63,992 nucleotides of DNA, filler included, from Stramenopiles sp. TOSAG23-6 (GCA_900128565.1; 5 parts of 5 records of this genome joined end to end with filler, not necessarily neighbours in it); one strand, 5' to 3'; counted from the whole stretch's first letter, positions 13,093 through 62,517 are shown. Numbers and translations: made by a program. Notes: a model not told the origin generated them from the sequence alone.

Positions 13093-13139
<47 letters not shown>

Positions 13140-13143
13140 ATAC

Positions 13144-14561: not shown

Positions 14562-14825
14562 NNNNNNNNNNNNNNNNNNNNNNNNNNNNNNNNNNNNNNN
14601 NNNNNNNNNNNNNNNNNNNNNNNNNNNNNNNNNNNNNNNNNNNNNNNNNNNNNNNNNNNNNNNNNNNNNNNNNNNNNNNNNNNNNNNNNNNNNNNNNNNN
14701 NNNNNNNNNNNNNNNNNNNNNNNNNNNNNNNNNNNNNNNNNNNNNNNNNNNNNNNNNNNNNNNNNNNNNNNNNNNNNNNNNNNNNNNNNNNNNNNNNNNN
14801 NNNNNNNNNNNNNNNNNNNNNNNAA

Positions 14826-14898
14826 TGGGGTGTAGCTCACTTGGTAGAGCGCTCGCTTTGCATGCGAGAGGCAGGGGGATCGATGCCCTCCACCTCCA
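14826..14898 (+). tRNA. tRNA-Ala(UGC)
   Basis: Cloverleaf: D-stem GCTC/GAGC, anticodon stem CTCGC/GCGAG with TGC, T-arm GGGGG-ATCGATG-CCCTC, G3:U70, discriminator A, downstream T-run terminator. Pair 1:72 is a U-C mismatch. Confidence 0.9.
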
Positions 14899-15147
14899 AT
14901 GTTTTTTCTTTTTTTGAAAAAAATTGTTTTTTTTTTTGAAAGGTCGAAAAAAAGCGATCAAATAAAATGTGACCCTAACCCTACAAGAGACCATAAAAAG
15001 TAGAAACAGACACAAGAAAATTCTAAAAAGTGTACCATTACAATGACAATGTATCCATAATATTGCCTGTATACAATAATTGAATAATTTATTACGTGTG
15101 TATTAATCTTTGTTTGCTATAACTTGAGTCAATCTTACTTTTATACA

Positions 15148-17397
15148 ATGACTGTTTCACCTAAAAATACTAATTGGGCGCGTGAGCTCAATGCGTTTGC
15201 CATTGAGCCTGGGAACCGTGTATGCGCAGATTGTGATTTTTATCCTTTAGAGGGGAGTTCGACCTTTGTATGTTTATTACATAATGTTTTTGTGTGTGAA
15301 CATTGTGCTAATGCTCGGTTTGATGTTGTTCCTAATAGTGTTGATACTGCCGCAGCTGATTCTGGTGATACTGCCGCCGCTGTTTCTGCTACACACGAGA
15401 GGAAAAAAGTCCTTAGGTCTCTTTATGCTCGTAACTGGTCACGAAAAGAGGTTGAATCTGTCTTGAAGGGTGGAAATAGCCAACAAAATAACGTCCTTGA
15501 ACACTTTATACCAAAAAAGTTCATGAAGCCTCAACCAGATGCGACGTTTGAGTCTCGGAAGTCGTGGATAAAGTTAAAATATGAACAACATATGTTTGCC
15601 ATGCCCTATGGCAAACAAAGAATGAAAGAAAACTCTGCTTTAGCTGCGCTTGCACGACCTGTCCTTGCAACATCAAATACGTTGCCTATTCGTTTGGTTG
15701 ATTATTTTATTGTATTTGGTCCAAAAGGACGAGCAAAGAGAAAATTACCTAATCCTAACACTGACACGAAATGCAGCACGGATTCCGATGGAAAGGAAAA
15801 CGTAGACAAGACACTGGATGTTCTGGAATCCATTCCATTAGAATCACAGATTGAAAGTCAATATCCACCAAAAAATAAACCTTATCGCGATGACTGTACT
15901 GTTCCTCATTCTATCGTCGAGTTTTGCTTTCCACATAAAAGTTTTAGAACGCGCTCAGAAAGTTGTTTGTTAACCCTAACCCTAATCATGAATTTTAATT
16001 TTTTTTTTTTTTCATAGTAAATTTTGTACCTAACAAATTTAAAAAAAAAAAAAAAAAACACTTTTGAAATCTTTTTCACAATATATGTGAACCTACTCTT
16101 CTTGATTTTATCTTGACCAATACGAGTGGTGTAAAACAATATGGTAGTGCATTGATTATGTATGAACCAATATCAAAACTACAGGCAAGAGAAATTTTTG
16201 CAGAAGAATTAATAGAATGTTCTTTAGGGGATCGATTTGAATTTGGTATTGTAAATGATCACTCAGCAGCCACTCTACATGAAGTGTCTATAAATGATAC
16301 TATCAATGATACTATAAATGATACTATAAATGATAATACAGATGAAAAAAGTAATACAAACAAAAAAAATAATATTACAAATAATAAAAATGAGAAAAAT
16401 ACAAATAATAAAAATAATAAAAATAATGAAAATACACGAAATCAACAAATTCAAGCACAAGTGGCTTTTTCCTTGACTAGAAAAGTTCGTAAGTTTGCTG
16501 CGGATTCTTTTTTTGATAAATTATCAATTTTAGATGAGCTTGAAATACATCCAAAACAGAATCGAATTTTGATTCAAGAAGCCAAAAAAAACTTGGAAAA
16601 GACAAATGAAACAAAATTATTCGAAGACGTTCAAAAAATGCTTACCAAAGAATGTACATTTTCAAAAAAAAAAAAAAAAAAAATTTCATACAAAATTTCA
16701 AACCTAATCTCAAATAAAAAAAAAAATTTAAAAATTTTTTTTTCATTGAAAAAAATGGACAATGTTATGTACCAAAAGCTTTAGTCGTTCTTTCACATTA
16801 TTCGTTTTTTTCAGCATATCATATTTTTTTACAACAATGTATGTTTTTTTTTTTTTTTTTTTTAATTTTTTTTTCATAGGAAATTTTGTACCTAACAAAA
16901 ATTAAAATTTTTTTTTTGAAATATTTTTTCAAAAATACATTATTTCGATTAAGTCTTTCGTGTTCTCCTGTCCCAATTGAGCGATATATAACAAATTTCT
17001 GTAGTGAAATTCCATTACCACCTCGTGGTTTAGTTCAAGTTCGTGTAAATATTGCTGATGAAAGTTTTACATTATCAAGATGTATGTTTTATTTTTTTTT
17101 TTTTACAAAAAAAATCGAATTTATTTTTTTTATAAAAATTTTGTACCTAACAATTTTTTTTTTTTTTTTTAAATATTTTTCCAAAATACATCTGCACTTC
17201 GTAAAGAAGAAAAAGATGAAGACGATGCAGTTGCATCAAAAGCTCGACAAGCGAGAGAAATGGTTTTCAATGCTAGAGCTGTAAAAGAAAAGAAGATTTT
17301 TGATGAAAAAGTAGCGAAAGAAAAAGCTGATAAAAAAGCTGAAGAAGAAGCAGAAGCAAGACGAAAAGAATTTTTTGGGGACAGCTCTGAAGATTAA
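15148..17397 (+). CDS. ArfGAP zinc-finger plus DENN-domain protein, 4 family introns; last exon of doubtful origin
   Basis: GNRVCADC..VCEHCA..GGN..WIKLKYE (ArfGAP); VDYFIVFG, FCFP, FILTNTSGVKQYG, YVPKALVVLSHYSFF and IPLPPRG (uDENN/DENN). Confidence 0.8.
15965..16086 (+). mobile_element. Introner-family intron, GT-AT
   Basis: TT|GTTTGT..TACCTAAC..CACAATATAT|GT joins ESCEPTLLDFILTN in frame. Confidence 0.75.
16839..16940 (+). mobile_element. Introner-family intron, GT-AT
   Basis: AT|GTATGT..AAAATACAT|TA gives FLQQLFRLS. Confidence 0.8.
17082..17191 (+). mobile_element. Introner-family intron, GT-AT
   Basis: AT|GTATGT..CCAAAATACAT|CT; the downstream frame stays open to 17397. Confidence 0.7.
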
Positions 17398-17522
17398 TCT
17401 TCTCATTTTAAAAATATATATATACTTTAAGAAATAATAAATACACGTCAATAAATCACGTTTTTAAATGTATGTTTTTAGTTATTTATCAAACACGTTT
17501 TTAAATGTCTCTTTTTATGTTT

Positions 17523-19245
17523 TTAGTTATTCGTTACATTTTCTTGATCACAAAATTTACGTTTAGATCCAACTCGATTTATATGTTCTTTATTTTTATG
17601 AGAATCTTTGATTTCTTTGGAGTATCCTTGTGAATATGCTGATGAATCTACTTTTACTTTTTCTTCATCACGAATTCCAATCTTCAAAACTTCAAAAATT
17701 GCAGTTCCACATTTCCTCGATGAAGATTTGACTAATTGAGCTACTCGCTTCATATTATGAAATTGTAATATAATTCGATTATTACAAGAATGTGCCCATG
17801 TTTCTCCCAGTGCTGGAACCATGTATTGTCAACAAAAAACAAATACAAAAAATTGGTCAAAAAAAATAGGTAAAAAAAATTCATACAAAGAAAAAAAAAT
17901 CTAAAAAAAAAATCTAAAAAAATTTGTTAGGTACGAAATTTCGTACGAAAAAAAAAATCATACAACAAAAAATTTCATCATGAAAAAATACATTTTCCCT
18001 TCTTTACAGCCTGTTTGAGGATTTACAGCAATTCTTGTAGTCATCTGGTTGACAACCACAACAGATGCAGGTGTACATAGAGCAAGTTGATGTAAGCACT
18101 GAGCCATTCCTGAGAGCATGAATTGTGAAAAAATATTTCTTTTTTTACAAAAAAAAAAAATTGTTAGGTACAAAATTTTCTGTGAAAAAATAAAAAAATT
18201 CGAAATTGTGGAAATGAAAACGTATATTCTCGCTCGTTTAGCCATATTGGAAAAATCTCTCCTAAAATGAAAACTGACACTATCAATAATAATTATTCGA
18301 ATCAGTGGATTTTTTTCTATGAAATTCTCTAAATTTTGTATAATAGCCAATTGTTCTCGAAAATCGTGAGCTCTATAAACATGTATTGTGAAACATTCAA
18401 AAAGAAAAAAAACGTTAGGTACAAAATTTTCTATGAAAAAAATAAATAAATTCGAAATTGGTAAAAAAATGATGAAAAAAACAAACGTGAATATTGGATA
18501 GTATAGACTCTCTTGTAAACTGTTTTGCTTCTTCAAGGTAATCTTTATCATCTATTGTAGAACTACTAGATGATTTTGTACGTTTACGGTTTTTCCGTGT
18601 GGCCATTTTTTTAACATGACGAACTAAAGCATCAGCAATTTGAGCGACACGACTGACCATAAAACTGCCTTCGGTATCAATGTAAATGGCATGGCCACCA
18701 ACACCACCAAAGCATTTTGGTATTTGTACATCAACTGCTAATTGGATCATTAGTTGTGTTTTACCTACACCTGCGACACCAACGACTTCGGTTACTTCAC
18801 GCAAAGGAATACCATTTGGGTCAAAAAGCGTGTCCAGTGAACGACAAAAAGAAATTACATTTGGTCCATTGTTTTCGCTCAATAAATCTAGCGCTGTTTT
18901 TGTACGAAGTGGATTTTTACTCAGGGGCTGTGCATGATTGGTGTTTTGTCTTTGTATGGAATCATTTGATTGGCCATTTTGTGAATTTGTGGACTGTAAA
19001 GTTGTGTTACCACTCACTGTTTCAACTGAAGTACCACCACTCGTTCGTACAAGTTTAATTATTTCAAGAGCATCAGAGTTTGACACATCTAAATCTCGAG
19101 ATAGTTCAAGTGGGCTTATGTCCACGAGTTGAGTTGCAGTCTCAAAACCAGCTTCTCTAAGCTTGTTATGAAATTTAGGAGGAAAAGCAAGACAATATAG
19201 TGGTAAAGAAGCCGTAGCTGAGGTCACCGATACTACGCTTTCCAT
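17523..19245 (-). CDS. RAD51C: RAD51 paralog C; exons 19245-18487, 18380-18226, 18117-17992, 17820-17523
   Basis: Walker A GVAGVGKTQ, LAVDVQIP..GG..AIYIDTEGSF, IIIDSVSFHFR, NQMTT and PALGETWAH motifs; three family introns. Confidence 0.92.
17821..17991 (-). mobile_element. Introner-family intron, GT-AT
   Basis: AT|GTATTT..CAATACAT|G restores KMVPALGETW. Confidence 0.8.
18118..18225 (-). mobile_element. Introner-family intron, AT-AT
   Basis: AT|ATACGT..CAATTCAT|G restores RARMLSGMAQ. Confidence 0.75.
18381..18486 (-). mobile_element. Introner-family intron, GT-AT
   Basis: CAC|GTTTGT..CAATACAT|GTT restores LSNIHVYRAHDF; the next two AGs are out of frame. Confidence 0.82.
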
Positions 19246-19757
19246 TTGAAATCTACAACACTTCCTGCTGGAAATAAGTACGAATTAAACGCTGACCAAC
19301 GGATTAAACAAGCTAAAATAGCACTAAGTTAGAGATAGTTACAACAAAAACAGGCTTATCAATTCAACATATTTTCATCATTCTTGATTATTACCATAGG
19401 AAATCCATTACACACGCTGATTTCAGATTGATAATTTGGTCCAAGTAATGAATTTTAATGATAGCATAGCAATAATTAATTCATTGATTTGATTGATTGA
19501 AAAAATCTAGATCTTGTTTTTTCATTTGAATTTTATGTTACCCGGTCCCCTACGTCATTTTTATCTATTTCGAAATAATATTATTACTTTATATGATAGA
19601 TAATATTGGATCATATTTAGAATGTAAAGCGAAACTCTTAATGTATAAAACAGAACAAATGAACAACAATCATTTTTTTGTTTGAAAAAATAATTACGTA
19701 CAAAATCTGGTACAAACAAAAATTAGGAAAAAAATCAAGAGGATTATTTAATATTTA

Positions 19758-21158
19758 TTATAGAAAAGTTGGATTATCTAAATCTAATCTAGATAATTTC
19801 GATACTGCAAGCATTTGCTCTGGTAATTCGTATTCATCACAACCTTGAAGAACAAAACCAATATTACAAATCAAATCTTTTACATGACCTCGAAAAGTCT
19901 GCATTAATTTAACTGCCATTGCTTTGAATGAGGAAACATCAACGTCAATTTCAATGTATTATGGAAAATATTTCAAAAAAAAAAACTAAAATTTGTTAGG
20001 TACAACATTCCGTACGAAAAATAAATTCAAAATTGAAAAAAAATAAAACATATATGTAACTATCTCCTGTATACTGCCGATCACTAGGATGCATTTGCAA
20101 TCCACGGTGATAAAACCTCGCTGTTTTTGCTATTATAAAAGGCGTTGCATTTGCAGATTCACAAATCATTCCAAGTTTTAGTTGTTTCATATTTGTGGAG
20201 TCAACAATGCATTTCACGCGATGATCACCGTTATCCCATTTATTGACAACTTGTTTTTTATCTGAAGATAAAAAGTTAAATCTTGATTTTTCTATTATTA
20301 CTGGTGTAGCATCGCGAGGTCTTTTGCCCATAGACATGAACCAGTTTTGTGCCAACCGTATTCCAGCAACAGCGGCAGTGTCTGATATGTCGTTTGTGTT
20401 TGTTGTAGAATTTCTTCTTGCAGCAGATATCGCTTCAGAAAGTGAAGTTATATGTGAAAAATCACGAACTGCTCGTGCAGCTGCCTTTTCACCTTTTTTA
20501 GTAAAAACACTGAGACATTTGAGAAATTTTGTGGATACTTGATGGCCAATTAAGACATGTTCAGTTGGGCCATCTTTTACGGAACTAGATTTGAGTACTC
20601 CTCTATCCCACTTATATGGAAGTTGAGCACAAGTAAATAAAAATATAGGAATGGAAAATCTTCGACATGATCTGCGTACAGCTTCGTCAACAGTCGGTAG
20701 GGAAAATATTTTTTTTGAGGCAGCATATGAAACAAGATTGTCAACTCTTTTAGGAGCTCTAAATATCTCTACGCCAATGACATCATATAAAGAAAACGTA
20801 GAGGGTACTTTTTTAGGATTCTTTGTTGCAGATTTACGTCGAAAACCTTTTTTTGACTTGGAACTAAAATAATCAGTACTACGAATATTAAAATCAGAGC
20901 CTGAAGCAACAGAAAAATTTGTTTTCTTTTCACCATGCAAAGTGTAACCAAATATTCGGACACCACTTTTAGAATGTCTCTTCTGTGGAGTTTTCGCACC
21001 ATGACTGCTAGAGACACCAGGATTTGAGTGACTTTTACTGGGACGACAAGGTATAACTGGTGGTACTTGGGAAGCTTGCAATGGTGTCAGGTTTTGTGTT
21101 GCAGGTTCCTGACGTCTAAATGTTATTTTTAGCGGTCTTGATGCGGCTATTATCAGCT
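19758..21158 (-). CDS. EDR2 C-terminal (DUF1336) domain protein; 5' end lost at the inversion junction
   Basis: FNIRSTDYF, YIEIDVDVSSF and IGFVLQGCDEYELPEQML motifs after removing 19954-20053. Confidence 0.75.
19954..20053 (-). mobile_element. Introner-family intron, AT-AT
   Basis: AT|ATATGT..TACCTAAC..TAATACAT|T restores YIEIDVDV. Confidence 0.78.
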
Positions 21159-21768
21159 GTAAAGAAGGGAAAATGTATTTTTTCATGATGAAATTTTTTG
21201 TTGTATGATTTTTTTTTTCGTACGAAATTTCGTACCTAACAAATTTTTTTAGATTTTTTTTTTAGATTTTTTTTTCTTTGTATGAATTTTTTTTACCTAT
21301 TTTTTTTGACCAATTTTTTGTATTTGTTTTTTGTTGACAATACATGGTTCCAGCACTGGGAGAAACATGGGCACATTCTTGTAATAATCGAATTATATTA
21401 CAATTTCATAATATGAAGCGAGTAGCTCAATTAGTCAAATCTTCATCGAGGAAATGTGGAACTGCAATTTTTGAAGTTTTGAAGATTGGAATTCGTGATG
21501 AAGAAAAAGTAAAAGTAGATTCATCAGCATATTCACAAGGATACTCCAAAGAAATCAAAGATTCTCATAAAAATAAAGAACATATAAATCGAGTTGGATC
21601 TAAACGTAAATTTTGTGATCAAGAAAATGTAACGAATAACTAAAAACATAAAAAGAGACATTTAAAAACGTGTTTGATAAATAACTAAAAACATACATTT
21701 AAAAACGTGATTTATTGACGTGTATTTATTATTTCTTAAAGTATATATATATTTTTAAAATGAGAAGA

Positions 21769-24335
21769 TTAATCTTCAGAGCTGTCCCCAAAAAATTCTT
21801 TTCGTCTTGCTTCTGCTTCTTCTTCAGCTTTTTTATCAGCTTTTTCTTTCGCTACTTTTTCATCAAAAATCTTCTTTTCTTTTACAGCTCTAGCATTGAA
21901 AACCATTTCTCTCGCTTGTCGAGCTTTTGATGCAACTGCATCGTCTTCATCTTTTTCTTCTTTACGAAGTGCAGATGTATTTTGGAAAAATATTTAAAAA
22001 AAAAAAAAAAAATTGTTAGGTACAAAATTTTTATAAAAAAAATAAATTCGATTTTTTTTGTAAAAAAAAAAAAATAAAACATACATCTTGATAATGTAAA
22101 ACTTTCATCAGCAATATTTACACGAACTTGAACTAAACCACGAGGTGGTAATGGAATTTCACTACAGAAATTTGTTATATATCGCTCAATTGGGACAGGA
22201 GAACACGAAAGACTTAATCGAAATAATGTATTTTTGAAAAAATATTTCAAAAAAAAAATTTTAATTTTTGTTAGGTACAAAATTTCCTATGAAAAAAAAA
22301 TTAAAAAAAAAAAAAAAAAAAACATACATTGTTGTAAAAAAATATGATATGCTGAAAAAAACGAATAATGTGAAAGAACGACTAAAGCTTTTGGTACATA
22401 ACATTGTCCATTTTTTTCAATGATTGATGTATTTTGGAATAATATTTCAAAAAAAATCTAAAAAAATTTGTTAGGTACNNNNNNNNNNNNNNNNNNNNNN
22501 NNNNNNNNNNNNNNNNNNNNNNNNNNNNNNNNNNNNNNNNNNNNNNNNNNNNNNNNNNNNNNNNNNNNNNNNNNNNNNNNNNNNNNNNNNNNNNNNNNNN
22601 NNNNNNNNNNNNNNNNNNNNNNNNNNNNNNNNNNNNNNNNNNNNNNNNNNNNNNNNNNNNNNNNNNNNNNNNNNNNNNNNNNNNNNNNNNNNNNNNNNNN
22701 NNNNNNNNNNNNNNNNNNNNNNNNNNNNNNNNNNNNNNNNAAAAAAAATTTTTAAATTTTTTTTTTTATTTGAGATTAGGTTTGAAATTTTGTATGAAAT
22801 TTTTTTTTTTTTTTTTTTTGAAAATGTACATTCTTTGGTAAGCATTTTTTGAACGTCTTCGAATAATTTTGTTTCATTTGTCTTTTCCAAGTTTTTTTTG
22901 GCTTCTTGAATCAAAATTCGATTCTGTTTTGGATGTATTTCAAGCTCATCTAAAATTGATAATTTATCAAAAAAAGAATCCGCAGCAAACTTACGAACTT
23001 TTCTAGTCAAGGAAAAAGCCACTTGTGCTTGAATTTGTTGATTTCGTGTATTTTCATTATTTTTATTATTTTTATTATTTGTATTTTTCTCATTTTTATT
23101 ATTTGTAATATTATTTTTTTTGTTTGTATTACTTTTTTCATCTGTATTATCATTTATAGTATCATTTATAGTATCATTGATAGTATCATTTATAGACACT
23201 TCATGTAGAGTGGCTGCTGAGTGATCATTTACAATACCAAATTCAAATCGATCCCCTAAAGAACATTCTATTAATTCTTCTGCAAAAATTTCTCTTGCCT
23301 GTAGTTTTGATATTGGTTCATACATAATCAATGCACTACCATATTGTTTTACACCACTCGTATTGGTCAAGATAAAATCAAGAAGAGTAGGTTCACATAT
23401 ATTGTGAAAAAGATTTCAAAAGTGTTTTTTTTTTTTTTTTTTAAATTTGTTAGGTACAAAATTTACTATGAAAAAAAAAAAAAATTAAAATTCATGATTA
23501 GGGTTAGGGTTAACAAACAACTTTCTGAGCGCGTTCTAAAACTTTTATGTGGAAAGCAAAACTCGACGATAGAATGAGGAACAGTACAGTCATCGCGATA
23601 AGGTTTATTTTTTGGTGGATATTGACTTTCAATCTGTGATTCTAATGGAATGGATTCCAGAACATCCAGTGTCTTGTCTACGTTTTCCTTTCCATCGGAA
23701 TCCGTGCTGCATTTCGTGTCAGTGTTAGGATTAGGTAATTTTCTCTTTGCTCGTCCTTTTGGACCAAATACAATAAAATAATCAACCAAACGAATAGGCA
23801 ACGTATTTGATGTTGCAAGGACAGGTCGTGCAAGCGCAGCTAAAGCAGAGTTTTCTTTCATTCTTTGTTTGCCATAGGGCATGGCAAACATATGTTGTTC
23901 ATATTTTAACTTTATCCACGACTTCCGAGACTCAAACGTCGCATCTGGTTGAGGCTTCATGAACTTTTTTGGTATAAAGTGTTCAAGGACGTTATTTTGT
24001 TGGCTATTTCCACCCTTCAAGACAGATTCAACCTCTTTTCGTGACCAGTTACGAGCATAAAGAGACCTAAGGACTTTTTTCCTCTCGTGTGTAGCAGAAA
24101 CAGCGGCGGCAGTATCACCAGAATCAGCTGCGGCAGTATCAACACTATTAGGAACAACATCAAACCGAGCATTAGCACAATGTTCACACACAAAAACATT
24201 ATGTAATAAACATACAAAGGTCGAACTCCCCTCTAAAGGATAAAAATCACAATCTGCGCATACACGGTTCCCAGGCTCAATGGCAAACGCATTGAGCTCA
24301 CGCGCCCAATTAGTATTTTTAGGTGAAACAGTCAT
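21769..24335 (-). CDS. Duplicate copy of the ArfGAP-DENN gene
   Basis: Identical ORFs; this copy shows the ..CCAAAATACAT|CA acceptor of intron 2, which is collapsed in the left copy. Confidence 0.7.
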
Positions 24336-26022: not shown

Positions 26023-26026
26023 GTAT

Positions 26027-26290: not shown

Positions 26291-27338
26291 ATGTATAACT
26301 GAAGAGATTCCTTTGTATTATTTAATTGAGCCTCCAATGTATTCAAAGCATGATCAGGGCTTGTGTACATTGTCATTGTTGATTTGGCTTGAATAGTTTT
26401 TGGTACGGGTGTAATATATTTTCGATTCTTGTTACGTGTATATATATTGGACAAAATATTTTTTTTTTTGTAAAAATTCGTTAGGTACGGAATTTTCTAT
26501 GAAAAACAAATATTGAAATTCATAATGAAAACATATCTACTGGAATAACAACTTTTCGTGTTTCCTTGGAAGAAATGATTTCTCGTTCACTAGATGTATA
26601 ATTTGATGCATCTGGTGTAAATGGCGTAGCAGCAGCCCAATCGGATTCAAATACTGAAGTTAAAAAGTCTAAAACTGGAGCAGCATCACCAGAAATGAGC
26701 ATTCCTGCTTCTCGATCATTCATTATTGAATTTTTTGACCAGTTGATACTGCTTACGCTCGCCTTTGATGTATCAAGACCCGTATCCATTTGCATATATT
26801 TGGCATGCATGAATGTCGTAGATGTATAATAACGTACTTCAACACCAGCAAGAGCTAAAAATGTTATTGGGTCAATCATTCCATCACATACATCAGTTTC
26901 ATAATTATTAGTCAAGATGCGGATTTTTACACCACGATGTACAGCATTTAACAAAGATTGAAACATTGGGAATGCTTCTTCAGATTGATTAGATACAGTA
27001 CATCCATAGCATTTTTGATTGTATCCGGTGCATCCTGACCAACTTGTGAGTCCTGGAGTTCCGACATCCAAAGTTTTTTTAGCTTCAGCAATAAATGTAG
27101 TTTCCACGGCTGCAGAGTGATCAGGCGAAAAGAAAGGCGTTAAAGAAAGTTCTTTACCTTTGATGGTTACAGGTGCGAATGAAACAGTGTACGGCTTAGT
27201 CTGGTGGTCAAATTTTGGTTCTTCTGTTCCGTCACCAAAAGTTTGATTCATGCGAATTATCGGACGATTTGTTGATGCGGCGACTGCTGCAACAAACAAT
27301 AGAGCAAATGACGAAATAAGTATTGCATATACTTGCAT
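26291..27338 (-). CDS. Secreted phospholipase D-superfamily protein (3'-truncated)
   Basis: Signal peptide MQVYAILISSFALLFVAAVAA; HxKxxxxD motif HAKYMQMD..SSINWS..DREAG. Introns at 26442-26536 and from 26290. Confidence 0.82.
26442..26536 (-). mobile_element. Introner-family intron, AT-AT
   Basis: AG|ATATGT..TACCTAAC..CCAATATAT|AT joins VIPVDTRNK in frame. Confidence 0.7.
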
Positions 27339-31903: not shown

Positions 31904-33182
31904 TTAAATAGATTTCATGGATACATCGTCAGGTAAAATTTGTATCGAGTCATTTGGATACCATTTTTTTGTTGATCTACGTTGAAGCCAATTATGTGTT
32001 GATTTACTTTGAAGCCAATTATTCAAATATAAAGAAAGCCATTGACGAACAATAAATATTACACTAGACCATAATATTATTAACAAAACTGGTAAAAACA
32101 TTGCACGTGATGTTACCGCAGCTACGAGAAAACTTGGAACTGAATCATGTATTGTGAAAAATATATTTGAACTTTGAACTTTGTTCAATATTTTTTACGA
32201 AAAAAAAAAACAAAAGAAAAAAAAAAATGAAATTTCAACGTAGAAAAAAACATACTACTTTACGTTGTGTACTTGCTAAAATCTCAGTAAATAATTCCCC
32301 AGACTGTGATACTAAGAAACATCCTGGAAATAAGCCTATAATAGTGCTAATAAAAAATTGTTTAAATGTCACATCAACAACTATTGGTATGGCATTATTG
32401 ATAAACCATTTAGGAATAAATGGTGTAATTCGAAATAAAGCAAGTGTCATGACAATACTGCATGGTGATTCTTTTTCTAATGTTTTCTTAAATCGCTTTG
32501 TAAGCCAAAATTGTTCGGCCTTTAATTTAAACTCATCGCCACTGACAGAACGTGTTATCCAAAATCCTGCACATGAACCAACCAACACACCTACAGATGA
32601 TATTGAAACGGCAAAAGGTTGCTGAAAAAGCATTCCTGCTGATAACGCAAGCAAAGTTGCTCCAGGAATTATAAATGCTATTGCGGCACTATATAGAATA
32701 AAAAATGTTACTGCGGCAAATATAAAGTTTTCCTCTCCCCATCGTTTTAGAAAAGTATGATACGTTTTCAATGTTTCGAATGATAGAATATTTCCACTCC
32801 CAGACAGTAAATAGACAACAAGGGTACATATAGTTGTAAGACATATATAATACAATAAAACGCCATCTCTACTAGTATTGCTCTCTCGAGTTTCAGACGT
32901 TGATGGATGTTGCTTCTCTTTATCAAGCGACACTTTTCTAAGGCTTGATCTTCTTGTTGGACTAGTCAGTGAAGTAGAACGTGGCCTGCTTTTGTGTTTG
33001 ATATAGTCACATCCAGTTGTTATATAGTCACAACCAGTTGTTGAGATATTCGCACCATTGACTCCTCTAACAGTGTTGACTAAAACTGATATTGAATTTG
33101 CACCACTATTTTGTAGTTTTTTACTAAGATAGTTTATTCGAGGTACTTTTCTACTAAAGATGTTGATCAAATCTGGAAGCAT
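31904..33182 (-). CDS. VTT/SNARE-associated (TMEM41/TVP38-like) membrane protein
   Basis: IPGATLLALSAG, FRITPFIPKWFIN and FFISTIIGLFPG motifs; one family intron. Confidence 0.85.
32147..32255 (-). mobile_element. Introner-family intron, GT-AT (degenerate branch motif)
   Basis: GTA|GTATGT..CACAATACAT|GAT, in frame. Confidence 0.7.
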
Positions 33183-45398: not shown

Positions 45399-48300
45399 TT
45401 ATTCTTTCATTTCAGTGGATACAAGGCACTTTCCGACCATATCTTCATTACATGTCATTATTTTCAACTCTTGAATTAGAGCAGCGTTATCTTTAGTAAT
45501 TATTTTCATTTCAATGTCTGTTGTTGTTTCATCCGCACTTTCTTTTTCTTCTTCTTTTAAACAAATTCTATTTATTGTATCATTTACAGGATTAGTGTAA
45601 GGTTGAGATATTCGTTGTAACATCTCCTCCTTTTGAGCATGCCCAATTTTCCTTCGTAGATGTTTTTCTAATTCTGAATAAGCAAACGCTTCAAACTCTT
45701 TACAAGCCGACTCCAGAATATTTTCTGCTTTGATTTCAGTATCTTTGAGCTGATCTATATTGAAAGATTCACTTTCTTTATATTCCACATTTAACTCATT
45801 TGCGATTCTACTTTGAATCGATCGTTCTTCCAGTTCAGCTAAAGTCGAGTATTTTTCCATCTCGTCGTCAAACGCAATTTTCCATTCATTTTTTTCGCAT
45901 TTTAAGAAGTGAAGTTCTTCTTGTAGTTTTAATAAATTCATTTGCGAGACATTTCCCAAAAATTCTTCATTCTTTTCGACTGATTCTGTCTGTGATGAAG
46001 TATTTTGTAAATGTTTTGGGCTATGCGACGGCGGTTGACTTATGGACATTTCATTTTGTGAATTGTTTGAACTATTTAATGGTATTTGCCGTTTGGATAT
46101 GTCATTTTGTAAATTTTGAACCACGATTGCAGCTGCTTCTAATTTTCCTTTGTACTTTGAACACTTATTTTTATATTCTATTTTTGCTTGACTAAAAGAA
46201 AATTTAGTTCTTTCTAATTGACTAGATGTTCTACGCAATAATCCATACAGATCGAGAATTTCCTGGCGATGTTCATATATCTCCAGATCCTTTTCTTGTT
46301 GTTTTTTGTCGTGAATAAGGTTGCCAGTATTTATGCCAGAAACAATCTTTGCTTCAGTCAATTCCAATTTTTCCAAACTTAAATTAGACTTTGAATGTTC
46401 AATTTTCATTTCATGATATTCTTCTTGTATTGTCTGATATTCTTCATGTAATGCATCCAGGGATTGTTTTAGTTTAGTTTCCAAGATATTTTCTTCGCTA
46501 ATCTCACATATGTATTTTTGGAAAATAGTAAAAAATGTTTTGTATTGTTAAGTTGAAAACTTTGGTTCAAAAAAATAAATTTAAAGTTTTTTAGGTACAA
46601 ATTTTACTACGAAAACATTTTTGAAAACATACCTTTCTTGTTCATTTTGCTTCATTAGTTCGTACATTTGTTCTTCGGCAAATTTCAAATCAACATTACA
46701 TTGTGTACGATGATGTAATAGAACTTCTGATGTTACAGCTTCAAATTTACGAGTTAAATCTTGCAATTGCGTTTCTTCATTGATTGTTCGTTTTACTACA
46801 TTATTCTGTAGAACTACCTCATTCAAAGATTTCTCAATAGATTCTTTTTCCAAAGTAATTTTTTCTAAATTTATAGAAGTATCTCTGAGTTCATTTCGAT
46901 TCTTCTCTAGGCTTAGTTGAAGTTGTTTGATTTCTACATTATATTTACTTTCTGTGTCTTCTTTATAGGTTTCGTATAGTTTATCTTTTTCAGCAGCTAA
47001 TTCTATCATTGTTTCAATTTCAGATTTATTTTTTTCAGCAGCTAATTCTATCATTGTTTCAATTTCAGATTTCCTATTATCCCATTGTACATCAACCGCC
47101 TCTCTCTCTCGTGAAGTTTTAGACTCAATTTCGGTTTGAAATTGAAATATTTCGGCACGAAATCGATTGGCAGAATCTTTCATTTCTTGCTTCAAATTCG
47201 CTTCAGTGATTTTTGCAATTTCAAATTTAGAATTGAATTCTGATAGAAACTTTGCATGTAATGTATCAGCAATCTCTTTTTCTATATTAGTTTTTGTCTC
47301 TTGTTGTGTATTATTTTTTGATGCATCTTTTGCAATAGAATAATTATCTGTATTATTTTTTGGTGCATCTTTTGCAATAGAATAATTATCTGTATTATTT
47401 TTTAAGGTACTATTACTTTTGCAGAAACTTCGATTCGATTTTGGTTTAGGAGATTTAAATGTCAGTATATCAGTATTTCGTGGCTGTTCTTCGCATATTT
47501 CTTGTTCTTTATTTTCATCAATTAGACGAGGATGCTTGGTTGCTCTATTATCTATACTTAATGAATTTTCAGATGTATCACATTTAGAATGTCTCGTATT
47601 TGAAAAAATATTCTCTATTACTGGGTTATGATGGTATCCTTGGGTAGTACACGGTGACGGAAATCGACGAGGTGGGAGAATTGAATTATTCTCTGAAAAT
47701 AATATAGTAGGGTTGCCTTGAGTGTGATGTACATTTTGATTTGATTTGTATCGAATCGGCACTACCGCATCGTTTATTGGTGTATGGGGGGATGAAATAT
47801 CTTGATTTGATTTGTATCGTATTGGCACAGTAACATCGTTTATTGGTGTATGGGGAGATGATATGCATGTACTAGTATACATTATATGGGGAGAACGATT
47901 CTTTATACTCTTTGTTATTGTTCTTTCTTTCGGATATGCTTTTGGGTTAAGGTTTTTGTTTGGTGACTTTTTTTTAATTGAACAATCATATATATTTAAT
48001 AAAGACTTCTCTGAAATGTTGAAATCATTGTGAATATAATCTAAAATATATGACCAATCGATACTACCAGTACTATCTACATTAATTATAGTATATAAAA
48101 TATCCGCTTCTTCCATTGTCATTTTTGTTATTTGGCAAATTACAATAACGAATTCATCTTTTGTCATTTTATCATGTATTTTCATAAAATATGTCAAAAT
48201 TGATGTTTTTTGTTAGGTACAAAATTTGCTACGAAAAAAAATCGAAATTGGAAAACAATGAAACATTCAGGTCCATTTCTCGCAATACGCAAAAAGTCTT

Positions 48301-52126: not shown

Positions 52127-52307
52127 GTATGTTTTATTTTTTTCAATTTCAATTTTTTTTTTTCGTACGAAATGTTGTACCTAACAAAAATATTNNNNNN
52201 NNNNNNNNNNNNNNNNNNNNNNNNNNNNNNNNNNNNNNTTAATTAATTAANNNNNNNNNNNNNNNNNNNNNNNNNNNNNNNNNNNNNNNNNNNNAAAAAA
52301 AAAAAAA

Positions 52308-52351
<44 letters not shown>

Positions 52352-52360
52352 GAAAAAATT

Positions 52361-52394
<34 letters not shown>

Positions 52395-52445
52395 TTCTAA
52401 AAAGTTGTTGAAAAAAAAAAAAAAATTGTACAAAACAAAACATAC

Positions 52446-53611
52446 GTATCCTCCGGTGGCACCGCCTAATGCCTTACCTAGAGTAGATGTAATCACATCA
52501 ATTCTTCCCTGAACACCACAATGTTCATGTATTTTGGAAAATTATTTCAAAAAAAAAATTTCCGTAAAAAAAAAATTGTTAGGTACAAAATTTCGTACAA
52601 AAACAAAAAAAAAAAAAAATACAACATACATCTGTTCCACGGCCTGTTTTACCAAAGAAGCCTGAAGCGTGACACTCATCAATCATAACTTGTGCTTGAT
52701 ATGTATTGTGAAATATATTGTGTTGTAAAAAATAGTTGGGTACAAAATTTTCAAAAAAAAAATTAAATTGTGAAATTGTGAAATTGTGAAATGGTACATT
52801 TATCTGCTAAATCACAAATGTCACTTAGTGGCGCTACATCCCCATCCATTGAAAAAACGCCATCAGTAGCTATTAATTTTAATCGAGCTCCAGCTGCATC
52901 AGCTTCTTTTAATTTGTGTTCCAAGTCATCCATACACATATGTTCAAAACGATATCGTTTCGCTTTACAAAGACGAATTCCATCAATACTACATTTTGGA
53001 AAAATATTTCAAAAAAAAAAAATTCCGTAAAAAAAATCGTTAGGTACAAAATTTCGTACGAAAAAAAAAATCAATTTTTTGTTAAAAAAAAAAAATAAAA
53101 CATACATGGAGGCGTGATTTAAAGAGTCACTAATCACTGCATCATCTGCCGTTAGAATGGTTTCAAAAAGACCAGCATTAGCATCAAAACAACTCGGGAA
53201 AAGAATTGTATCTTCGGTTCCGTGAAACTTAGAAATGGCAGTCTCTAAATCTTTATGGATATCCTGAGTACCACAAATAAATCGCACCGATGCACAACCG
53301 AGTCCATGTGTCTCTAAAGTATTTTTAGCTGCTTGTACAAGTTCAGGGTGATCCGCCAACCCTAAGTAATTGTTTGCACAGAAATTTAATACTGGCTGCT
53401 TCGAACCTTGTACGGAAATTTCAGAATTTTGGGACGAGGTGATCACACGTTCATTTTTGAACGTTCCAGCCTCTTTTATTTCTTCGAGTTCTGCTTGCAG
53501 TATTTCCCGCATTGGAGTAAACGCAGCAGCAGTTTGATGTGCTCGAGTTGTAATAAAAGCATTTGAGTGAAGCTTCATAAATATTGATCTACATTTACTT
53601 GGGGATAACAT
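52446..53611 (-). CDS. GCAT: 2-amino-3-ketobutyrate CoA ligase, mitochondrial (3'-truncated); exons 53611-53106, 52988-52798, 52700-52630, 52526-52446
   Basis: [43 protein letters not shown] and TLGKALGGA motifs. Confidence 0.95.
52527..52629 (-). mobile_element. Introner-family intron, GT-AT
   Basis: GAT|GTATGT..CCAAAATACAT|GAA restores [15 protein letters not shown]. Confidence 0.87.
52701..52797 (-). mobile_element. Introner-family intron, GT-AT
   Basis: AT|GTACCA..CACAATACAT|AT restores [13 protein letters not shown]. Confidence 0.85.
52989..53105 (-). mobile_element. Introner-family intron, GT-AG variant
   Basis: AT|GTATGT..CCAAAATGTAG|T restores NHASIIDG. Confidence 0.9.
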
Positions 53612-55835: not shown

Positions 55836-58595
55836 TTATTGTTTTACTCTTGTTGCTTTTCTCTTGACTTTTTCAACAATATAACGAAAAAATGGAGGTC
55901 CAATGATTTGATTTATAACAACGACTGATATCATCGTTGTTGCAAATGCACCTCCCCAGCCACTGTATTCTAAATGTACTTTTTTAGCAAGTCCTAATGC
56001 TACTCCAGCTTGTGTGATGTATGCCATCCAAGATGATTTGTTCTCATCATCAGGCTCTCCGGACGCATATCCACCCAAATAAGCTCCAACCATAATTCCT
56101 AATATACGACCAACAACTATACTATATTTTGGAAAAATATTTCAAAAAAAAAAAAATCTAAAAAAACTTGTTAGGTACAAAATTTTTTTACAAAAAAAAA
56201 AAAAAAAAAAATTAAAACATACATAGATGCAATGTATAAATTCTCAGTCATGACTTTTAAATTAAGTGCTGCGCCGCATAATGTAAAAAAACTCACGTGT
56301 ACATATGGAGCAATCCGATCCTCCTTGTATTGTGAAAAATATTTTTTTTTGTAATTTCGAATTTATTTTTTTTCTTAGGTACAAAATTTCCTACGAAAAT
56401 TAAAAAAAAAAAATTTAAAAAAAAAACCTACATGGTGAGAAAGTGTTTGTTTCCATTGCTAAAGTTGACACACACAAAACCTGCAACAGTGCAAATAATA
56501 AGTGGTTGAAGGTATGGTTGAACTCTATGACCCACAGCAAAGGCAAGAAATCCACTAAGAAGTAAACATGTATTTTGGAAAAATATTTGAAAAAAAAAAA
56601 TTTCAATTTGTTAGGTACAAAATTTTTATAAAAAACCAAAAAAAAAAAAAAAAATCGAATTTGAAAAAAAACCAAAAAATAAAACATACATGTGTCTAAA
56701 ATTCTTGATATGATCTTTTGAAAACTTTGAGGGATATTGAGTGACCGAGTAGAGCTATCAAATCTGTCTTCATTTGAAAACTTATTTTGTTTAGGGTTAG
56801 GGTCAATAAGCCTTGTTGTAGTAGATGATTCATTAATGGAACTCTCAACATCTCGTGTTTCCAATCTTCCTTTATGTATTTTGGAAAAATATTTCAAAAT
56901 TAAATCCGTTAGGTACAAAATTTCGTATGAAAAATAAATTCGATTTTTTTTTTTTTTTTTTTTTTGGTAAAGAAAAAAAAATAAAAATAAAACATACATG
57001 TTTGGTTCTATAAGGTTCAATAATTTTATATACTTCAGATTTTTCAGATTTTTCAGATTTTTCAGTTTTTTCAGATTTTTTAGATTTTTTAGAATTTTTA
57101 GGGTTGAGCAACGGGTGATGAAATTTTGAATGTTTTGTGTTGAATAGAAATTCGTATAATTTATGACAACAAGAACATGGTGACTCAGGTGATAATGATA
57201 CTATCGCGGGTAAAAAAAACAAACCCCAAACAATTCCAAGTAATGCCGACATGCCTAACTGTGCAAAAAATACAGCAGTTACATAAATAGAACGAACTTC
57301 ATTAGCAAGCAATGCATTAGCAAATAACGAAGCTGCAGCAAAAATTCCAATGACAACTAAATCCATGACAACAGTGACTCCAAGAACCAATCTAGAAAAA
57401 GATAAATTTTCCGTGCCAGTTTCTCTAACTATTGCAATGGCAGATGCAGGAGATCTAGCTACAATAAGAGCTCCAGCCATCAAAGCCACTGCAAGAACTT
57501 GGTTCTGGCTCATTCCTTTCATAAACACAATTTGATTTGAAAGACAAACGACAAGAAATGTACCTACTAAATATTCAAACAGTACCAGTCCTAAAGTAAC
57601 ATACATAATAGCTTTCATGCGACCTTTCATTCGGCTTAATATCAGTTTACTTCCTGATGCATAGGATATAAATGCAAGGGCAGTTTCATCAATGAAACGT
57701 AGCGATCGAATGTCTGCCTCTGGTATTAGTTGTAGAGCTTGTGGACCGGTCAAGATACCCATTAGAAGAAAACCTGTTATTCTCGGTAAACCCATGTATT
57801 TTGGAAAAATATTTAAAAAAAAAAGTTTAAAATTTGTTTTCTATGAAAATTTCGTATGAAAACCAAAAAAAACAAAAAAAACAAAAAAAAAATAAAATAT
57901 ACATGCTAGGAAATGCCGCCCCAACACTTTGGCTCGCAACACAGACCATGGCAAAACGAACTGCAACTGCAAGTGATGGAATATAATCGCGTAATGATGG
58001 CGTATGTGTATTTCCACGAAGAGTATTTTTATCAGTGAATTTTGAGGCAGTACTTTTGTTATCCGCCGCATCAAGTACAGAGCAATCAATTGGCATTTTG
58101 CCAGCTGCCCAGTCCCCTTGCCCAGCTTGTAATGTAAAACTAAAAAAATAAGTAAAACCAGAAGGATCAAGTTTTACATTTCTTGCAGAGTTGAAACTAT
58201 CTGTAGCATTAAACCCATCAAGTAAACACAAACCTGGTCGCAATCCTACTTCCTCAGTACGTAGCCCAACAGTAATATTAGTCCCCATCATTGCAGGTGT
58301 ATATTTTGTGAAAAAAAAAAAAAAAAAAAAATTGAAATTCGTTAGGTATATAATTTCGTACGAAAACCAAAAAAAACAAAAAAAAAAAAATTTTACCAAA
58401 AAAAAAATTCATGGTGAAAATATACATGATCGGATAGTAAAGTGACTGCTTTAAGTTCTGGAGAGTTAGCATCAATACTTAACTCTGGATCATAAATATT
58501 CATAGGTCCTAAAGTCGATACATTTTTTGCTTCATCCACTAAAGAACATAAAAAAGGAAGTTGTCCAGAAAGCTGATTCACATATATTGTGAAAA

Positions 58596-59078: not shown

Positions 59079-59823
59079 ATATGTAATAGTTGTAAAGAAT
59101 GGCCAAAATCACCCATTAATTTTAATATAACAATTTCACGAGCCAAATGCAACGCTTCTGATTCATTTCTATCAATAATGTATTGTGTAAGATAGTACTG
59201 TGGTTTTAGGGTTAAACATCGTTTTAAAAAAAAAAACATGAAAAAATCATGAAAAAAAAAAAAAAATTGTTAGGTACAGAATTCCGTACAAAAAAAAAAA
59301 TCATGAAAAAAAAAAAAAAGACGTACACTTTTAATGCCACTTTTTTCCCTGTTGATTTCTCTATGCCATCATAAACTACTGCATATCGTCCAGTTCCAAG
59401 TTTTTCGCCAATGATGAAGCGATCTGTAAGTTTGGGATTCTGCATGGCTTTCTGACGTGTCGTTTTTGAGTTTTTTGAGTTTCGTGTACGTTTTGAGGTT
59501 GTTGTTTTTGAGGATTTCGAGGAATTCTCTTTTTTTTTATCTTTTTCATCACTTTGTGTTGTATTTTTGTCTTCTGTTGTTGTCCGAGGGGAAAAACTAG
59601 ATGCTAGAATACTTCCAGAAAGAAATCGATGTATCATAAATCGTGTACCATTTTGAATATCGGGTATATGAATCTCATCAGTATATAGAGCAAGAACACC
59701 AACTGAAAAAAAAGACATTGTAAGACAAGAGTTGCGTCGAAATTTGAAAAAATGATTATTTCGTAGAAAGACACCAAAGGAATTGTTGAAGACACGTGAC
59801 CTTAAAAATGACCACACAGTCAT
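59079..59823 (-). CDS. N-terminal fragment of a Ser/Thr protein kinase (subdomains I-IV)
   Basis: LGTGRYAVVY, VALKVIDR and LAREIVILK motifs; no catalytic loop follows. Confidence 0.75.
59178..59326 (-). mobile_element. Introner-family intron, GT-AT
   Basis: GT|GTACGT..CACAATACAT|T restores VALKVIDRNE. Confidence 0.75.
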
Positions 59824-60479: not shown

Positions 60480-62243
60480 ATGGAAGATATCTGTCATATA
60501 AAGACGTTAAAAATTGACAAACATGAAATAGAAAATTCGGGAAATCCACCAAAAAAAAAATCGGGAAATCCACCAAAAAAAAATCCAGAAGCTTTGGAGA
60601 GGACACAAAGTGCTCTGAAACATTCCATCGCTCGCACACGATCGAATAGTCCAACAGAAAGCATATTTAAAACAACCCCTGAAAATCAACATACTCTCTT
60701 ATGGGATACTAAATATAATTTCGATGCAACACAGTTCACAAATGATGATCTAGTCATTGTGTTGCAATGCATTTGGAAAAAATTGAACATTTTTTTTCTA
60801 TCACAAATTTCTTGTAAAACTTGGACTGAATTTTTCAATACTGTTTTACAAGAGATGTCCTGCAATGGTAATGAATATGTATGTTTTATTTTATTTTTTT
60901 ACAAAAAATTAAAGTTTTTTTTTTTTTTTTTTTTTTTGGTTTTCGTACGAAATTTTGTACCTAACAAATTAATTTTTTTTTTTTTGAAATATTTTTCCAA
61001 AATACATCATACATTTCGACATGTCGTCGATGTCACACATTTTATGTATTCTTTACTGACTGAAACAAAATTGATTTTCCATTTAAAAACGCATGAAATA
61101 GTTGCAGTCATGACAGCTACATTATTACATGATTTGGGTCATTTGGGGTATTCAAATTGGTGGTTAAAAGCAACACATCATCAATGGGCTGTTAAAAACA
61201 AGAACAGCCCAAATGAAAACGAACATGTCCGTTGTCATCATGAATTTATTAATTTATTTATTTTTTTTTGGTTTCATACGAAATTTCGTACCTAACGATT
61301 TTTTTTTTTTTGTAAAATTCGTGTTTTTTTCACAATACATGTTCGACGCGCAAAACTGTTAATAGAAAAATTTTCAATATTTCGTGCATTTTCACAAGTA
61401 CAACAAAAAAAAATGTATCGTTTACTTACTGAAATGATATTTGGTACTGATATGAGTAATGTATGTTTTATTTTTTTTCAAAAATTTTTTTTTTTAATAG
61501 TAAATTTTGTACCTAACATTTTTTTTAGATTTTTTTTAAATTTTTTTTTTTTGAAAATTTGATTTTTTTTTTTTTTTTTTTTCATAGTAAATTTCATACC
61601 TAAAAAAATTTTTTAAAAAAAATTTTATAAAATATTTGTCCAAAATAAATCATGGTAAAATTTTTTTTAAAAGTAAATTTTTTCCCTAAAATTTTTTTTT
61701 GATTTTTTTTAAATTTTTTTTTTTTTAAAATTTTATTTTTTTTTTTTTTTTTTTTTCATAGTAAATTTCATACCTAACAAAATTTTTTAAAAAAAATTTT
61801 ATAAAATATTTGTCCAAAATACATCATGGTAAAATGTATAAATCATTTGGAAATATGCTATCACAAATGTCAGAATCCCATGCAGGGGGTCATATACAAC
61901 ACGAAATGCATGAAAAACACGAAATACATGAAAAACACGAAATACATGAAGAAAATAGAAAAAAACGAAGACAAAGTGTGTTTGAAAAAGTCATGGAAAC
62001 ACGAAAAAAACATGTTCTTTGTATATATGTATGTTTTTTTTTTTTTCAATTTTTTATCTACATTTTTTTTTTGGTTTTCATACGAAATTTTCATAGAAAA
62101 TAAATTTAACAAAAAAAAAAAATTCACAATAATTCACAATATAGGGTGATATTCAAGATGATAGTAAACAATGTTATAAAAGCCGTTGGTTATCAATGGC
62201 ACTCAAAGTGGCTGATATTTCTAATTTAGGACGGCCTCTGCAT
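60480..62243 (+). CDS. Class I 3',5'-cyclic nucleotide phosphodiesterase; exons 60480-60878, 61008-61226, 61341-61460, 61825-62028, 62145-62243
   Basis: YHTFRHVVDV, LLHDLGH.G.SN, ENEH, TDMSNH and LKVADISN motifs, several spanning junctions; start uncertain. Confidence 0.85.
60879..61007 (+). mobile_element. Introner-family intron, GT-AT
   Basis: TAT|GTATGT..CCAAAATACAT|CAT restores the catalytic NEYHTFRH; no AG for more than 90 nt downstream. Confidence 0.88.
61227..61340 (+). mobile_element. Introner-family intron, GT-AT
   Basis: CAT|GTCCGT..CACAATACAT|GTT. Confidence 0.8.
61461..61824 (+). mobile_element. Introner-family intron, GT-AT, with an internal duplication
   Basis: AAT|GTATGT..CCAAAATACAT|CAT restores TDMSNH; a degraded second copy of the 3' end lies near 61580-61660. 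Confidence 0.75.
62029..62144 (+). mobile_element. Introner-family intron, GT-AG variant
   Basis: TAT|GTATGT..CACAATATAG|GGT. Confidence 0.78.
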
Positions 62244-62347
62244 GTAAGTTTTTTTTTTTTCATTTTTTTTTTTAATTTTTTTTTTCATTTTTTTTTTAAA
62301 TTTAAAAATTTTTTTTTTTTTTTCAATTTTTTTTTTTTTTAAATTTA

Positions 62348-62433
<86 letters not shown>

Positions 62434-62517
62434 CAATTTTTTTATTTTTTTTTTTTTTTCATTTTTTTTTTTTCATCAATTTTTTAAAATATTTTAAAAT
62501 ATTTCTGTATACAATAG

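Follow-up and report, generated by a model that had tools for sequence, protein, structure and literature searches.

Evidence for a family of element-derived GT..AT introns and for a U1 RNA fitted to their donor in Stramenopiles sp. TOSAG23-6

The genome of Stramenopiles sp. TOSAG23-6 (GCA_900128565.1) carries thousands of copies of a short introner-like family that very probably derive from a mobile element and are removed by the major (U2-type) spliceosome as GT..AT introns, with a U1 RNA fitted to their donor, a relaxed acceptor, and AG ends that are mostly derived. The family was studied in a window of 63,992 nucleotides (nt), made of five records joined with filler, and in the whole assembly of 21.1 megabases (Mb); positions are those of the window unless a contig is named. 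The possible registers of the intron are named here by their shift, 0 for GT..AT, -1 for TG..CA and -2 for AT..AC. The preference for GT..AT over AT..AC, already expressed in an earlier note on this DNA, is well supported by sequence evidence of several kinds: the 5' end of U1, a 64:15 asymmetry between variants of the two flanking pairs, stop codons at the junctions, and residues of the GCAT, Myb and USP genes.

Two catalogues of copies were used. The first covers 80 stretches of ten kilobases (kb) and the window, 864 kb together, was built with weight matrices blind to both flanking dinucleotides, and holds 263 unique full copies kept from 449 core matches. The second accepted 324 of 484 core matches, which gave 281 copies after de-duplication. 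Diverged, truncated and duplicate copies were left out of both. Genome-wide strict patterns, which miss any copy whose core is altered or whose base at -3 is C, were counted and de-duplicated by hand and cover AG, AC, GT and AA ends, not TT or CT ends.

The 16-nt core of the family has 7,730 matches in the assembly against one for the reversed pattern, a count inflated by duplicate and palindromic contigs, and about 40 related copies lie in the window. The median copy length is 99 nt (263 copies of the first catalogue), and exact removal leaves an open frame in 238/263 copies, against 76-89/263 for lengths one or two nt off. The layout consists of a donor GTAYGTTTT, a branch box TACCTAAC and then a 3' motif TTTTYCAMAATAY. 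The core terminates in CCTAAC, a U2-type branch-point motif, and the presumed branch A lies a median of 39 nt from the 3' end (5-95% range 33-54; 285/322 copies). Many similar copies at unrelated genic sites, with the frame restored on exact removal, mark them by their sequence as an introner-like family of about 100 nt, and complementarity of the donor to U1 and U6 and of the branch point to U2 assigns them to the U2 type. Among 282 sampled copies the start is GT in 252, AT in 18, GC in 6, GA in 4, GG in 1 and TT in 1. The ends that follow one 12-nt motif genome-wide are AT in 4,488 cases, AG in 240 and AC in 99; YAT is the 3' end of most copies, and the canonical YAG acceptor does not describe the family, AG ending only 8/282 copies of the random sample. 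The pair upstream of the donor is AT in 180/282 copies, and the base before it (-3) is C or T in 166/281. Words of the region 52440-62200 are present in four seawater metatranscriptome runs to 6-7% only, a figure on word content and not on reads.

The spliceosomal RNAs give the strongest indication of the register. Genes for U5, U2, U1 and U4 stand head to tail on the same strand, in a cluster of at most 640 bases (G000:C1146:9-645), and a U6 gene lies on contig C3740; the branch-pairing region of U2 and the ACAGAGA of U6 are standard. The 5' end of U1 reads AAACGUACAUGG where the Rfam consensus has AUACUUACCUGG, which amounts to three changes in a gap-free match over 12 positions. Opposite the changed positions 2, 5 and 9 stand intron +7, intron +4 and exon -1, where the family has T in 274/281, T or C in 269/281 and T in 247/281 copies, and all three changes complement AT|GTAYGTTT with the AT exonic. 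Out of 11 positions, the mean pairing is 9.42 at shift 0, 2.84 at -1, 4.60 at -2, 3.16 at +1 and 5.62 at +2, while an unchanged U1 end would pair at 6.96 in shift 0. The first base of an intron pairs with U1 position 8, and this places the predicted cut at AT|GT. The match is not a stray element end, given that U2 lies 24 nt upstream and the other strand carries no core. In a model search of the assembly for a second, standard U1 only the cluster copy was returned, and the standard U1 12-mer has three occurrences against two for a control. Metagenome scans with the family core and with the inner U1 stretch gave 0 matches each, in a scan from which close relatives may be left out. The complementarity suggests that U1 has adapted to the donor of an invading element.

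The register can also be read from variation among the copies. The alternative in which the intron runs from the upstream AT to the AC within ATAC, be it a U12-type or a U2-type AT..AC intron, with the downstream AT exonic, has a known pair of ends on its side, and it leaves the messenger RNA (mRNA) unchanged for the 192/281 concordant copies, in which the terminal pair matches the upstream one. The equivalence of the two registers for copies flanked by AT, from which the earlier note had started, holds to this extent; AT is the commonest flank and not a fixed one. The upstream pair departs from AT before an AT end in 64 copies, against 15 with the reverse (281 copies, p 2e-8), so that an AT..AC intron would have its 5' dinucleotide as the more variable end. 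By position, the asymmetry is 56:6 at -2 and 26:11 at -1 (p 0.02). Upstream -2 variants are more frequent at third codon positions (26/74 vs 30/171, p 0.004), and the terminal -2 base has no such third-position rise (16/111, 9/83, 11/87). Among 107 discordant copies, no junction stop arises at shift 0, against 4 at -1, 7 at -2 and 10 at +1, with a sign test p of 0.016 against shift -2; one of the original 108 discordant copies (window 26536) was removed for an automatic 3' end that is off by 2 nt, and keeping it gives one stop at shift 0.

GCAT and a Myb gene lead to the same register. The earlier note had stated that in GCAT only the register of the family yields the conserved NHASIIDG, and this was confirmed: GT..AG removal of intron 1 is the only one that gives it, shifts -1, -2 and -3 giving NHASSIDG, +1 NHASMIDG and +2 NHASMFDG, and 119/119 homologs read NHASIIDG (a 120th match, without listed source, was excluded). 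In the Myb gene, on contig G000:C21, the copy has an upstream AC and ends in AT, and the required Arg (CRERW, as in c-Myb) is found only at shift 0, and the Leu of the USP gene is compatible with shifts 0 and -1. An AT..AC register would give the wrong residues in GCAT and Myb, and the AC that it needs at positions -4,-3 is present in only 189/263 copies. U12-type introns have the consensus donor RTATCCTT and the branch point TCCTTAAC. The family has neither, and TTCCTTAAY occurs 8 times against 34 for its reverse; U12 and U6atac gave 0 matches in the incomplete genome, in a search with no positive control, and U11 was not searched. Together with the drop in U1 pairing, this makes AT..AC removal hardly credible, even with the small advantage in codon likelihood and the urocanase residue that are given below.

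Starts and ends also vary together. An A start is found in 7/26 rows with an AC end, 46/1,050 with AT and 1/42 with AG (p 1.5e-4). Parker and Siliciano reportedly described in 1993 a covariation of the first and last bases of introns. Such an interaction is also discussed in the text available from PMC10711555, and covariation at shift 0 is the pattern expected of true intron ends. A shift by one base, to TG..CA or to +1, for instance by a non-spliceosomal cut guided by inverted ends, has in its favor that the ends TGTA..TACA form a short inverted repeat, and it gains from the lower discrimination at -1 than at -2 and from a +1 shift being invisible in many copies. The 4 and 10 stops against none, the exclusion of -1 by Myb and GCAT, and the fit of U1, U2, U6 and the first-last covariation to shift 0 make it highly improbable.

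It may further be asked if an ordinary spliceosome uses a nearby in-frame AG, trimming or adding a few residues. With the donor fixed, an open in-frame AG lies within 30 nt of the end in 109/297 non-AG copies, some open GT..AG pair lies within 30 nt of both ends in 208/297, and the Prp8 core is of ordinary type. In-frame AGs are not enriched (counts in the three frames 165, 143 and 136, p 0.21; copies carrying one or more, 121, 117 and 114), and 188/297 copies have none with the donor fixed. In GCAT, removal at the AT ends gives a homology score of 500.6 bits, and none of the 31 open GT/GC-AG alternatives for introns 2 and 3 reaches it (best 487.2), by which such use was rejected there. We regard this explanation as very unlikely.

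The copies of the window that were considered individually are as follows.

17821..17991, minus strand, intron 3 of the RAD51C-like gene, 171 nt, GT..AT
18118..18225, minus strand, intron 2 of the RAD51C-like gene, 108 nt, A start (AT..AT)
18381..18486, minus strand, intron 1 of the RAD51C-like gene, 106 nt, GTTTGT...AATACAT (GT..AT)
18414..18429, minus strand, core with CCTAAC in that intron 1, putative branch A at 18415
18487..18489, minus strand, last exonic codon CAC before that intron 1, its upstream AC discordant with the terminal AT
26442..26536, minus strand, copy with upstream AG, A start and AT end; its 3' end was placed manually, 2 nt away from the automatic one
32147..32255, minus strand, copy with upstream TA, GT..AT, 109 nt; QRKVDS at shifts 0 and -1, QRKDDS at -2
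46510..46632, minus strand, copy with upstream AG, GT..AT, 123 nt
52127..52194, plus strand, 5' portion of a copy preceded by AC; an assembly gap hides its 3' end
52295..52445, minus strand, 5' portion of GCAT intron 4, preceded by AC; an assembly gap hides the 3' end
52527..52629, minus strand, GCAT intron 3, AT|GT..AT, 103 nt; no GT/GC-AG alternative scores equally
52701..52797, minus strand, GCAT intron 2, AT|GT..AT, 97 nt
52989..53105, minus strand, GCAT intron 1, AT|GT..AG, 117 nt; register fixed at the protein level
56122..56222, minus strand, AG-ending copy, upstream AT, 101 nt
56325..56431, minus strand, AA-ending copy, upstream AT, 107 nt
59178..59326, minus strand, copy in a kinase-like gene, upstream GT, GT..AT, 149 nt; VALKVID at shifts 0 and -1, VALKIID at -2
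62029..62144, plus strand, AG-ending copy, upstream AT, 116 nt
62244..62517, plus strand, diverged AT|GTAAGT..AG intron, 274 nt, without clear core; end set by hand from the open frame at 62518

The gene that we take, from its translation, to be RAD51C-like shows how far a single copy can be pressed. Removing 18381..18486 joins SNIH to VYRAHD in one open frame, and both registers encode His at 18487 (CAC or CAT), so that the protein level cannot tell them apart. The varied upstream pairs had been correctly read by the earlier note, with AC at 18487-8, 52125-6 and 52446-7, AG at 46633-4 and 26537-8, TA at 32256-7, GT at 59327-8, CT before a GA-starting copy near 48270, and TT (by eye) before the copy ending at 16086. 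Its use of the AC cases as tie-breakers does not hold, since 52126 and 52446 enter assembly gaps and 18487 gives His either way. An upstream AC is often just a duplicated AC target (15/23 AC-ending copies), and the idea that upstream variants are synonymous exon changes was not borne out, with 14/68 against 11.5 expected and, for changes at -1 only, 1/12 against 2.9. The AG ends at 52989, 56122 and 62144 do sit exactly where other copies have AT. Two copies had been missed, the AA-ending one at 56431-56325 and the diverged AG-ending intron at 62244-62517, which is either an old family member or an unrelated intron.

The two flanking dinucleotides are a 2-nt duplication, with AT as the commonest but not fixed pair, given that TT, GT, AC and AA ends also occur. 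Non-AT ends are identical to the upstream pair in 28/53 cases against 3.8 expected (281 copies). In the strict genome-wide patterns GT ends have GT upstream in 27/36 distinct copies, AC ends have AC in 15/23 and AA ends have AA in 6/24; TT ends have TT in 14/20 (281 copies). The family thus shows a target-site duplication, of 2 nt, as is expected of a miniature inverted-repeat or other terminal-inverted-repeat DNA transposon. A duplication longer than 2 nt left no sign, the match at -3 being 99/281, and there is no palindromic target preference at -3/+1 (46/164 vs 49.8). Copies born concordant are expected to resemble other copies more, and concordant copies are indeed nearer to other copies than those with another pair upstream of an AT end (nearest-neighbor scores, p under 0.001).

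From these observations a mechanism can be proposed. A short, non-autonomous transposon-like element would insert with a 2-nt target duplication, mostly at AT, supplying donor, branch point and poly(U) tract, and the duplicated pair would be borrowed as the acceptor. U1, changed at three positions including one facing the exonic T at -1, would pair with the family donor and read the upstream pair as exon -2,-1, which may also favor AT targets. The major spliceosome would then remove the element with the downstream duplicate, leaving the upstream dinucleotide in the mRNA, by a cut at AT|GT, branch formation at the adenosine of CCTAAC, about 39 nt before the end, and ligation after YAT. The check on the acceptor would be relaxed, with the last base mostly U after G+1 and an A start often accompanying a C end, and terminal T-to-G changes that make AG would be kept more often than others, so that most AG copies are secondarily canonical.

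The register could be the same and the origin of the end different, if the element carried its own AT end, spread through RNA or recombination to sites that U1 can read, and owed its non-AT matches to repair against the target. To this would be due the 64/101 copies with a non-AT upstream pair that end in AT; the protein needs the upstream pair in Myb, USP and three TGA cases, where the AT end is no copy of that pair; no transposase was identified, and the match stops before -3. The matching GT/GT, AC/AC and TT/TT pairs counted above and the younger age of concordant copies speak for duplication, and GT-ending copies form no subfamily. Indeed, subfamilies by end are not supported in general, since the nearest neighbor shares the end in 0/8 AG, 1/13 GT and 5/20 TT cases. 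An element-borne AT end is therefore unlikely, while still deserving some weight, and under the duplication reading the Myb, USP and stop cases point to an end converted to AT in at least some discordant copies rather than to upstream drift.

AG-ending copies carry the family donor, core and 3' motif. As the earlier note proposed, they are family members, and most of them have become canonical secondarily: the upstream pair of the 35 distinct AG copies found with the strict pattern is AT in 26, AG in 3 and another in 6. This spectrum differs from that of AC-ending (p 7e-6) and GT-ending copies (p 8e-9), and its difference from AA-ending copies is not significant (p 0.14). Copies with AT upstream number 26 for AG ends, 10 for AA and 4 for AC, and the AG excess holds after correction for the internal spectrum of T changes (T>A 39, T>G 27, T>C 13; p 1.4e-4 vs AA, 0.015 vs AC), which was drawn from constrained positions and serves as a proxy only. 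Given the AT/AG excess and the AT upstream of most of them, AG copies look derived, most through a preferentially kept terminal T-to-G change and a few by birth at AG targets.

Several observations weigh against the reading proposed here. Removal of the elements and expression of the U1 gene are both predicted from DNA. The U1 gene aligned over the whole model scores 54.1 bits (E 7.5e-12), under the Rfam cut-off of 69.5, and its second copy lies on an identical duplicate contig and lends no independent support. Taken by itself, the stop test does not reach significance against shift -1 (p 0.125), and in 159/322 copies the mRNA of shift +1 would be identical. The summed codon likelihood is 14.6, 10.0 and 16.0 for shifts 0, -1 and -2, which does not separate them and slightly favors -2, and synonymous enrichment of the upstream variants is absent among the 68 variants. 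In the one urocanase homolog aligned, the residue is Met, that of shift -2; a Leu had been expected there, which this homolog does not bear out. AG copies are not significantly more diverged, the greater divergence that had been predicted for them being a trend only (p 0.056 with 18 AG copies, 0.068-0.074 with 8). The Prp8 segment matching yeast 1383-1937 is ordinary and keeps Q1594, W1575, E1576 and W1609 (numbering taken from the equal-length match), and Prp18 gave no candidate in the incomplete assembly, in a search with no positive control. On the side of the element, the inverted ends amount to GTAY..ATAC only, with 3-4 positions at 54-90% and about 4 nt beyond the duplication; the mobilizing enzyme was not found, with 0 matches to the tyrosine recombinase PF00589 and DDE families not searched; and no empty site was seen for any copy.

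Such points could be taken further, to elements that are removed from DNA or not at all, as assembly or amplification artefacts or in pseudogenes. The assembly does contain palindromic and duplicate contigs, and element removal is here predicted from DNA. The copies lie in gene sense orientation and bear the signals of donor, branch point and poly(U), their exact removal restores frames as described, U1 matches the donor, and the ends covary like spliceosomal ends, so that this explanation is scarcely tenable.

The relaxed acceptor directs attention to the proteins that contact it; the Prp8 residues named above are those described as acceptor-contacting in the text available from PMC12707134. 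Slu7 is present. A motif of U2AF35 gave 0 matches in the incomplete genome, and a U2AF65 model gave nothing above its cut-off, the best hit being a frame with three RNA recognition motifs on contig C433. In yeast without Prp18, according to the portions of PMC10711555 that were available, the non-G acceptors used most are CAU and UAU, which depend on poly(U); a pairing of G+1 with U-1 has been proposed, and a C or A in the last position is expected to clash with G+1. That the acceptor was relaxed through loss of Prp18 is speculative, and the blank search is only a lead, even though the acceptors of Prp18-less yeast fit the spectrum of family ends by analogy. A wider proposal, which is at best tentative, is that one invading element has reset the splicing code: GT..AT would have become normal, U1 would have been rewritten for the donor and the duplicated exon base, the AG check would have been lost with Prp18 (perhaps U2AF35), and the acceptor would be set by branch point, poly(U), first-last pairing and a residual AG preference.

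A close likeness is to Fritillaria borealis and F. pellucida, in which the introns are likewise transposon-derived, with YAY before the donor and as the last three bases; AT is there the commonest 3' end, with a share of 44% in F. pellucida and of 34% in F. borealis, and the minor spliceosome is absent as stated in the available portions of PMC13326754 and PMC11282704. Fritillaria is an animal with diverse, mainly AG donors, whereas the present case is a stramenopile in which one family starts with GT in 252/282 copies; YAY is shared at both sites and the mostly non-GT donors are not. The same portions describe for Fritillaria a U2AF duplication, changes in N6-methyladenosine and two U1 versions with identical 5' ends, whereas here the 5' sequence of U1 is itself altered. 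The introners of the Chrysochromulina type (PMC9860276) and Micromonas IE1 (PMC11282704) are similarly short, multi-copy and genic, with an internal donor, an acceptor from the duplicated target and exact mRNA. They are described with a duplication of 3-4 nt and an AG end, whereas here it is 2 nt and AT (or TT, GT, AC, AA). In the passages available from PMC12130899, AG and AC are the expected 3' ends of introners, and unfamiliar ends are filtered unless supported by RNA.

A U1 pairing region fitted to an atypical donor is likewise described for Entamoeba and Mastigamoeba balamuthi (10.1101/2022.06.08.495308); the hexamer ACGUAC is common to the Mastigamoeba U1 and the present one, and the extension by a preceding A to that of Entamoeba. 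In the available part of that source the fitted donor positions are intronic and AT acceptors do not appear, whereas here one of the three changes lies opposite the final base of the exon and the donor family has recently expanded. The use of HAU in Prp18-less yeast differs in being a mutant error among cryptic sites, whereas here it is apparently the normal end of most introns. GT-AT, AT-AT and AT-AC ends are known to splice in U12-type and rare U2-type introns (PMC1557818, as far as available), which for GT-AT means a handful per genome, with 7 of U12 type in human and mouse together, against thousands with U2-type signals here. No report of a GT-AT intron family in a stramenopile was found in the literature searched, the supplements with introner catalogues lying outside its scope.

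The AG acceptor is close to universal, and about 80% of the copies of the dominant family here end in AT. Standard-looking U2, U6 and Prp8 beside a rewritten U1 would offer a natural test of what enforces the AG rule, and the genome one of the adaptation of a spliceosome to a burst of transposons. With its thousands of copies, the family would record selection on both ends, in the A start with a C end and in the T-to-G change, which allows the first-last pair model to be tested outside mutants. The genome would also let the Prp18 result from yeast be put to the test in a natural setting. Any gene caller that demands an AG acceptor will produce wrong models for most interrupted genes of the lineage.

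Some further observations concern the copies. A starts occur in the window at 18118-18225, 19954-20053 and 26442-26536. A 364-nt copy at 61461-61824 has internal tandem repeats of the core region, like duplications in the sampled stretches L009, L017 and L020, and in stretch L002 (about 7490-7680, plus strand) two copies adjoin without an intervening exon, the terminal AT of one being the upstream pair of the next. Two or three units of telomere-like AACCCT lie inside a family copy at about 15960-15985, with an inverted copy near 23500. Degenerate core-like stretches off clear coding frames at 19600-19760, 30290-30320 and 55700-55745 and in stretch L013 are possibly decayed or untranslated-region copies. 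Many contigs break within poly(T) runs of family copies.

Other features concern genes and assembly. The Prp8 gene (L118 2586-8651, minus strand) has 2,021 codons without an intron amid densely interrupted neighbors, and long genes without a family copy are also found over the window's first 13 kb. The closest match to this Prp8 is a protein labelled MAST, with 91% identity, followed by oomycetes at about 80%, on which a larvacean origin was rejected in favor of a marine stramenopile. Long, near-perfect inverted duplications at 12993-18010 and 21156-26173 (arms of 1,919, 1,569 and 1,292 nt) look like amplification or assembly artefacts, and spacers of N with a 12-base stop linker join contigs at 12993-13092, 26074-26173, 39152-39251 and 52195-52294. 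A transfer-RNA-like sequence, probably Ala by eye, lies at a gap edge and is repeated (14824-14900 and 24585-24660). At 36263-37612, on the minus strand, a gene is made up of tandem repeats of 87 nt in which the unit AA.NGHLEVLKWVRSQNPPCPWD recurs; these repeats presumably resemble the ankyrin-like repeats of giant viruses and protists.

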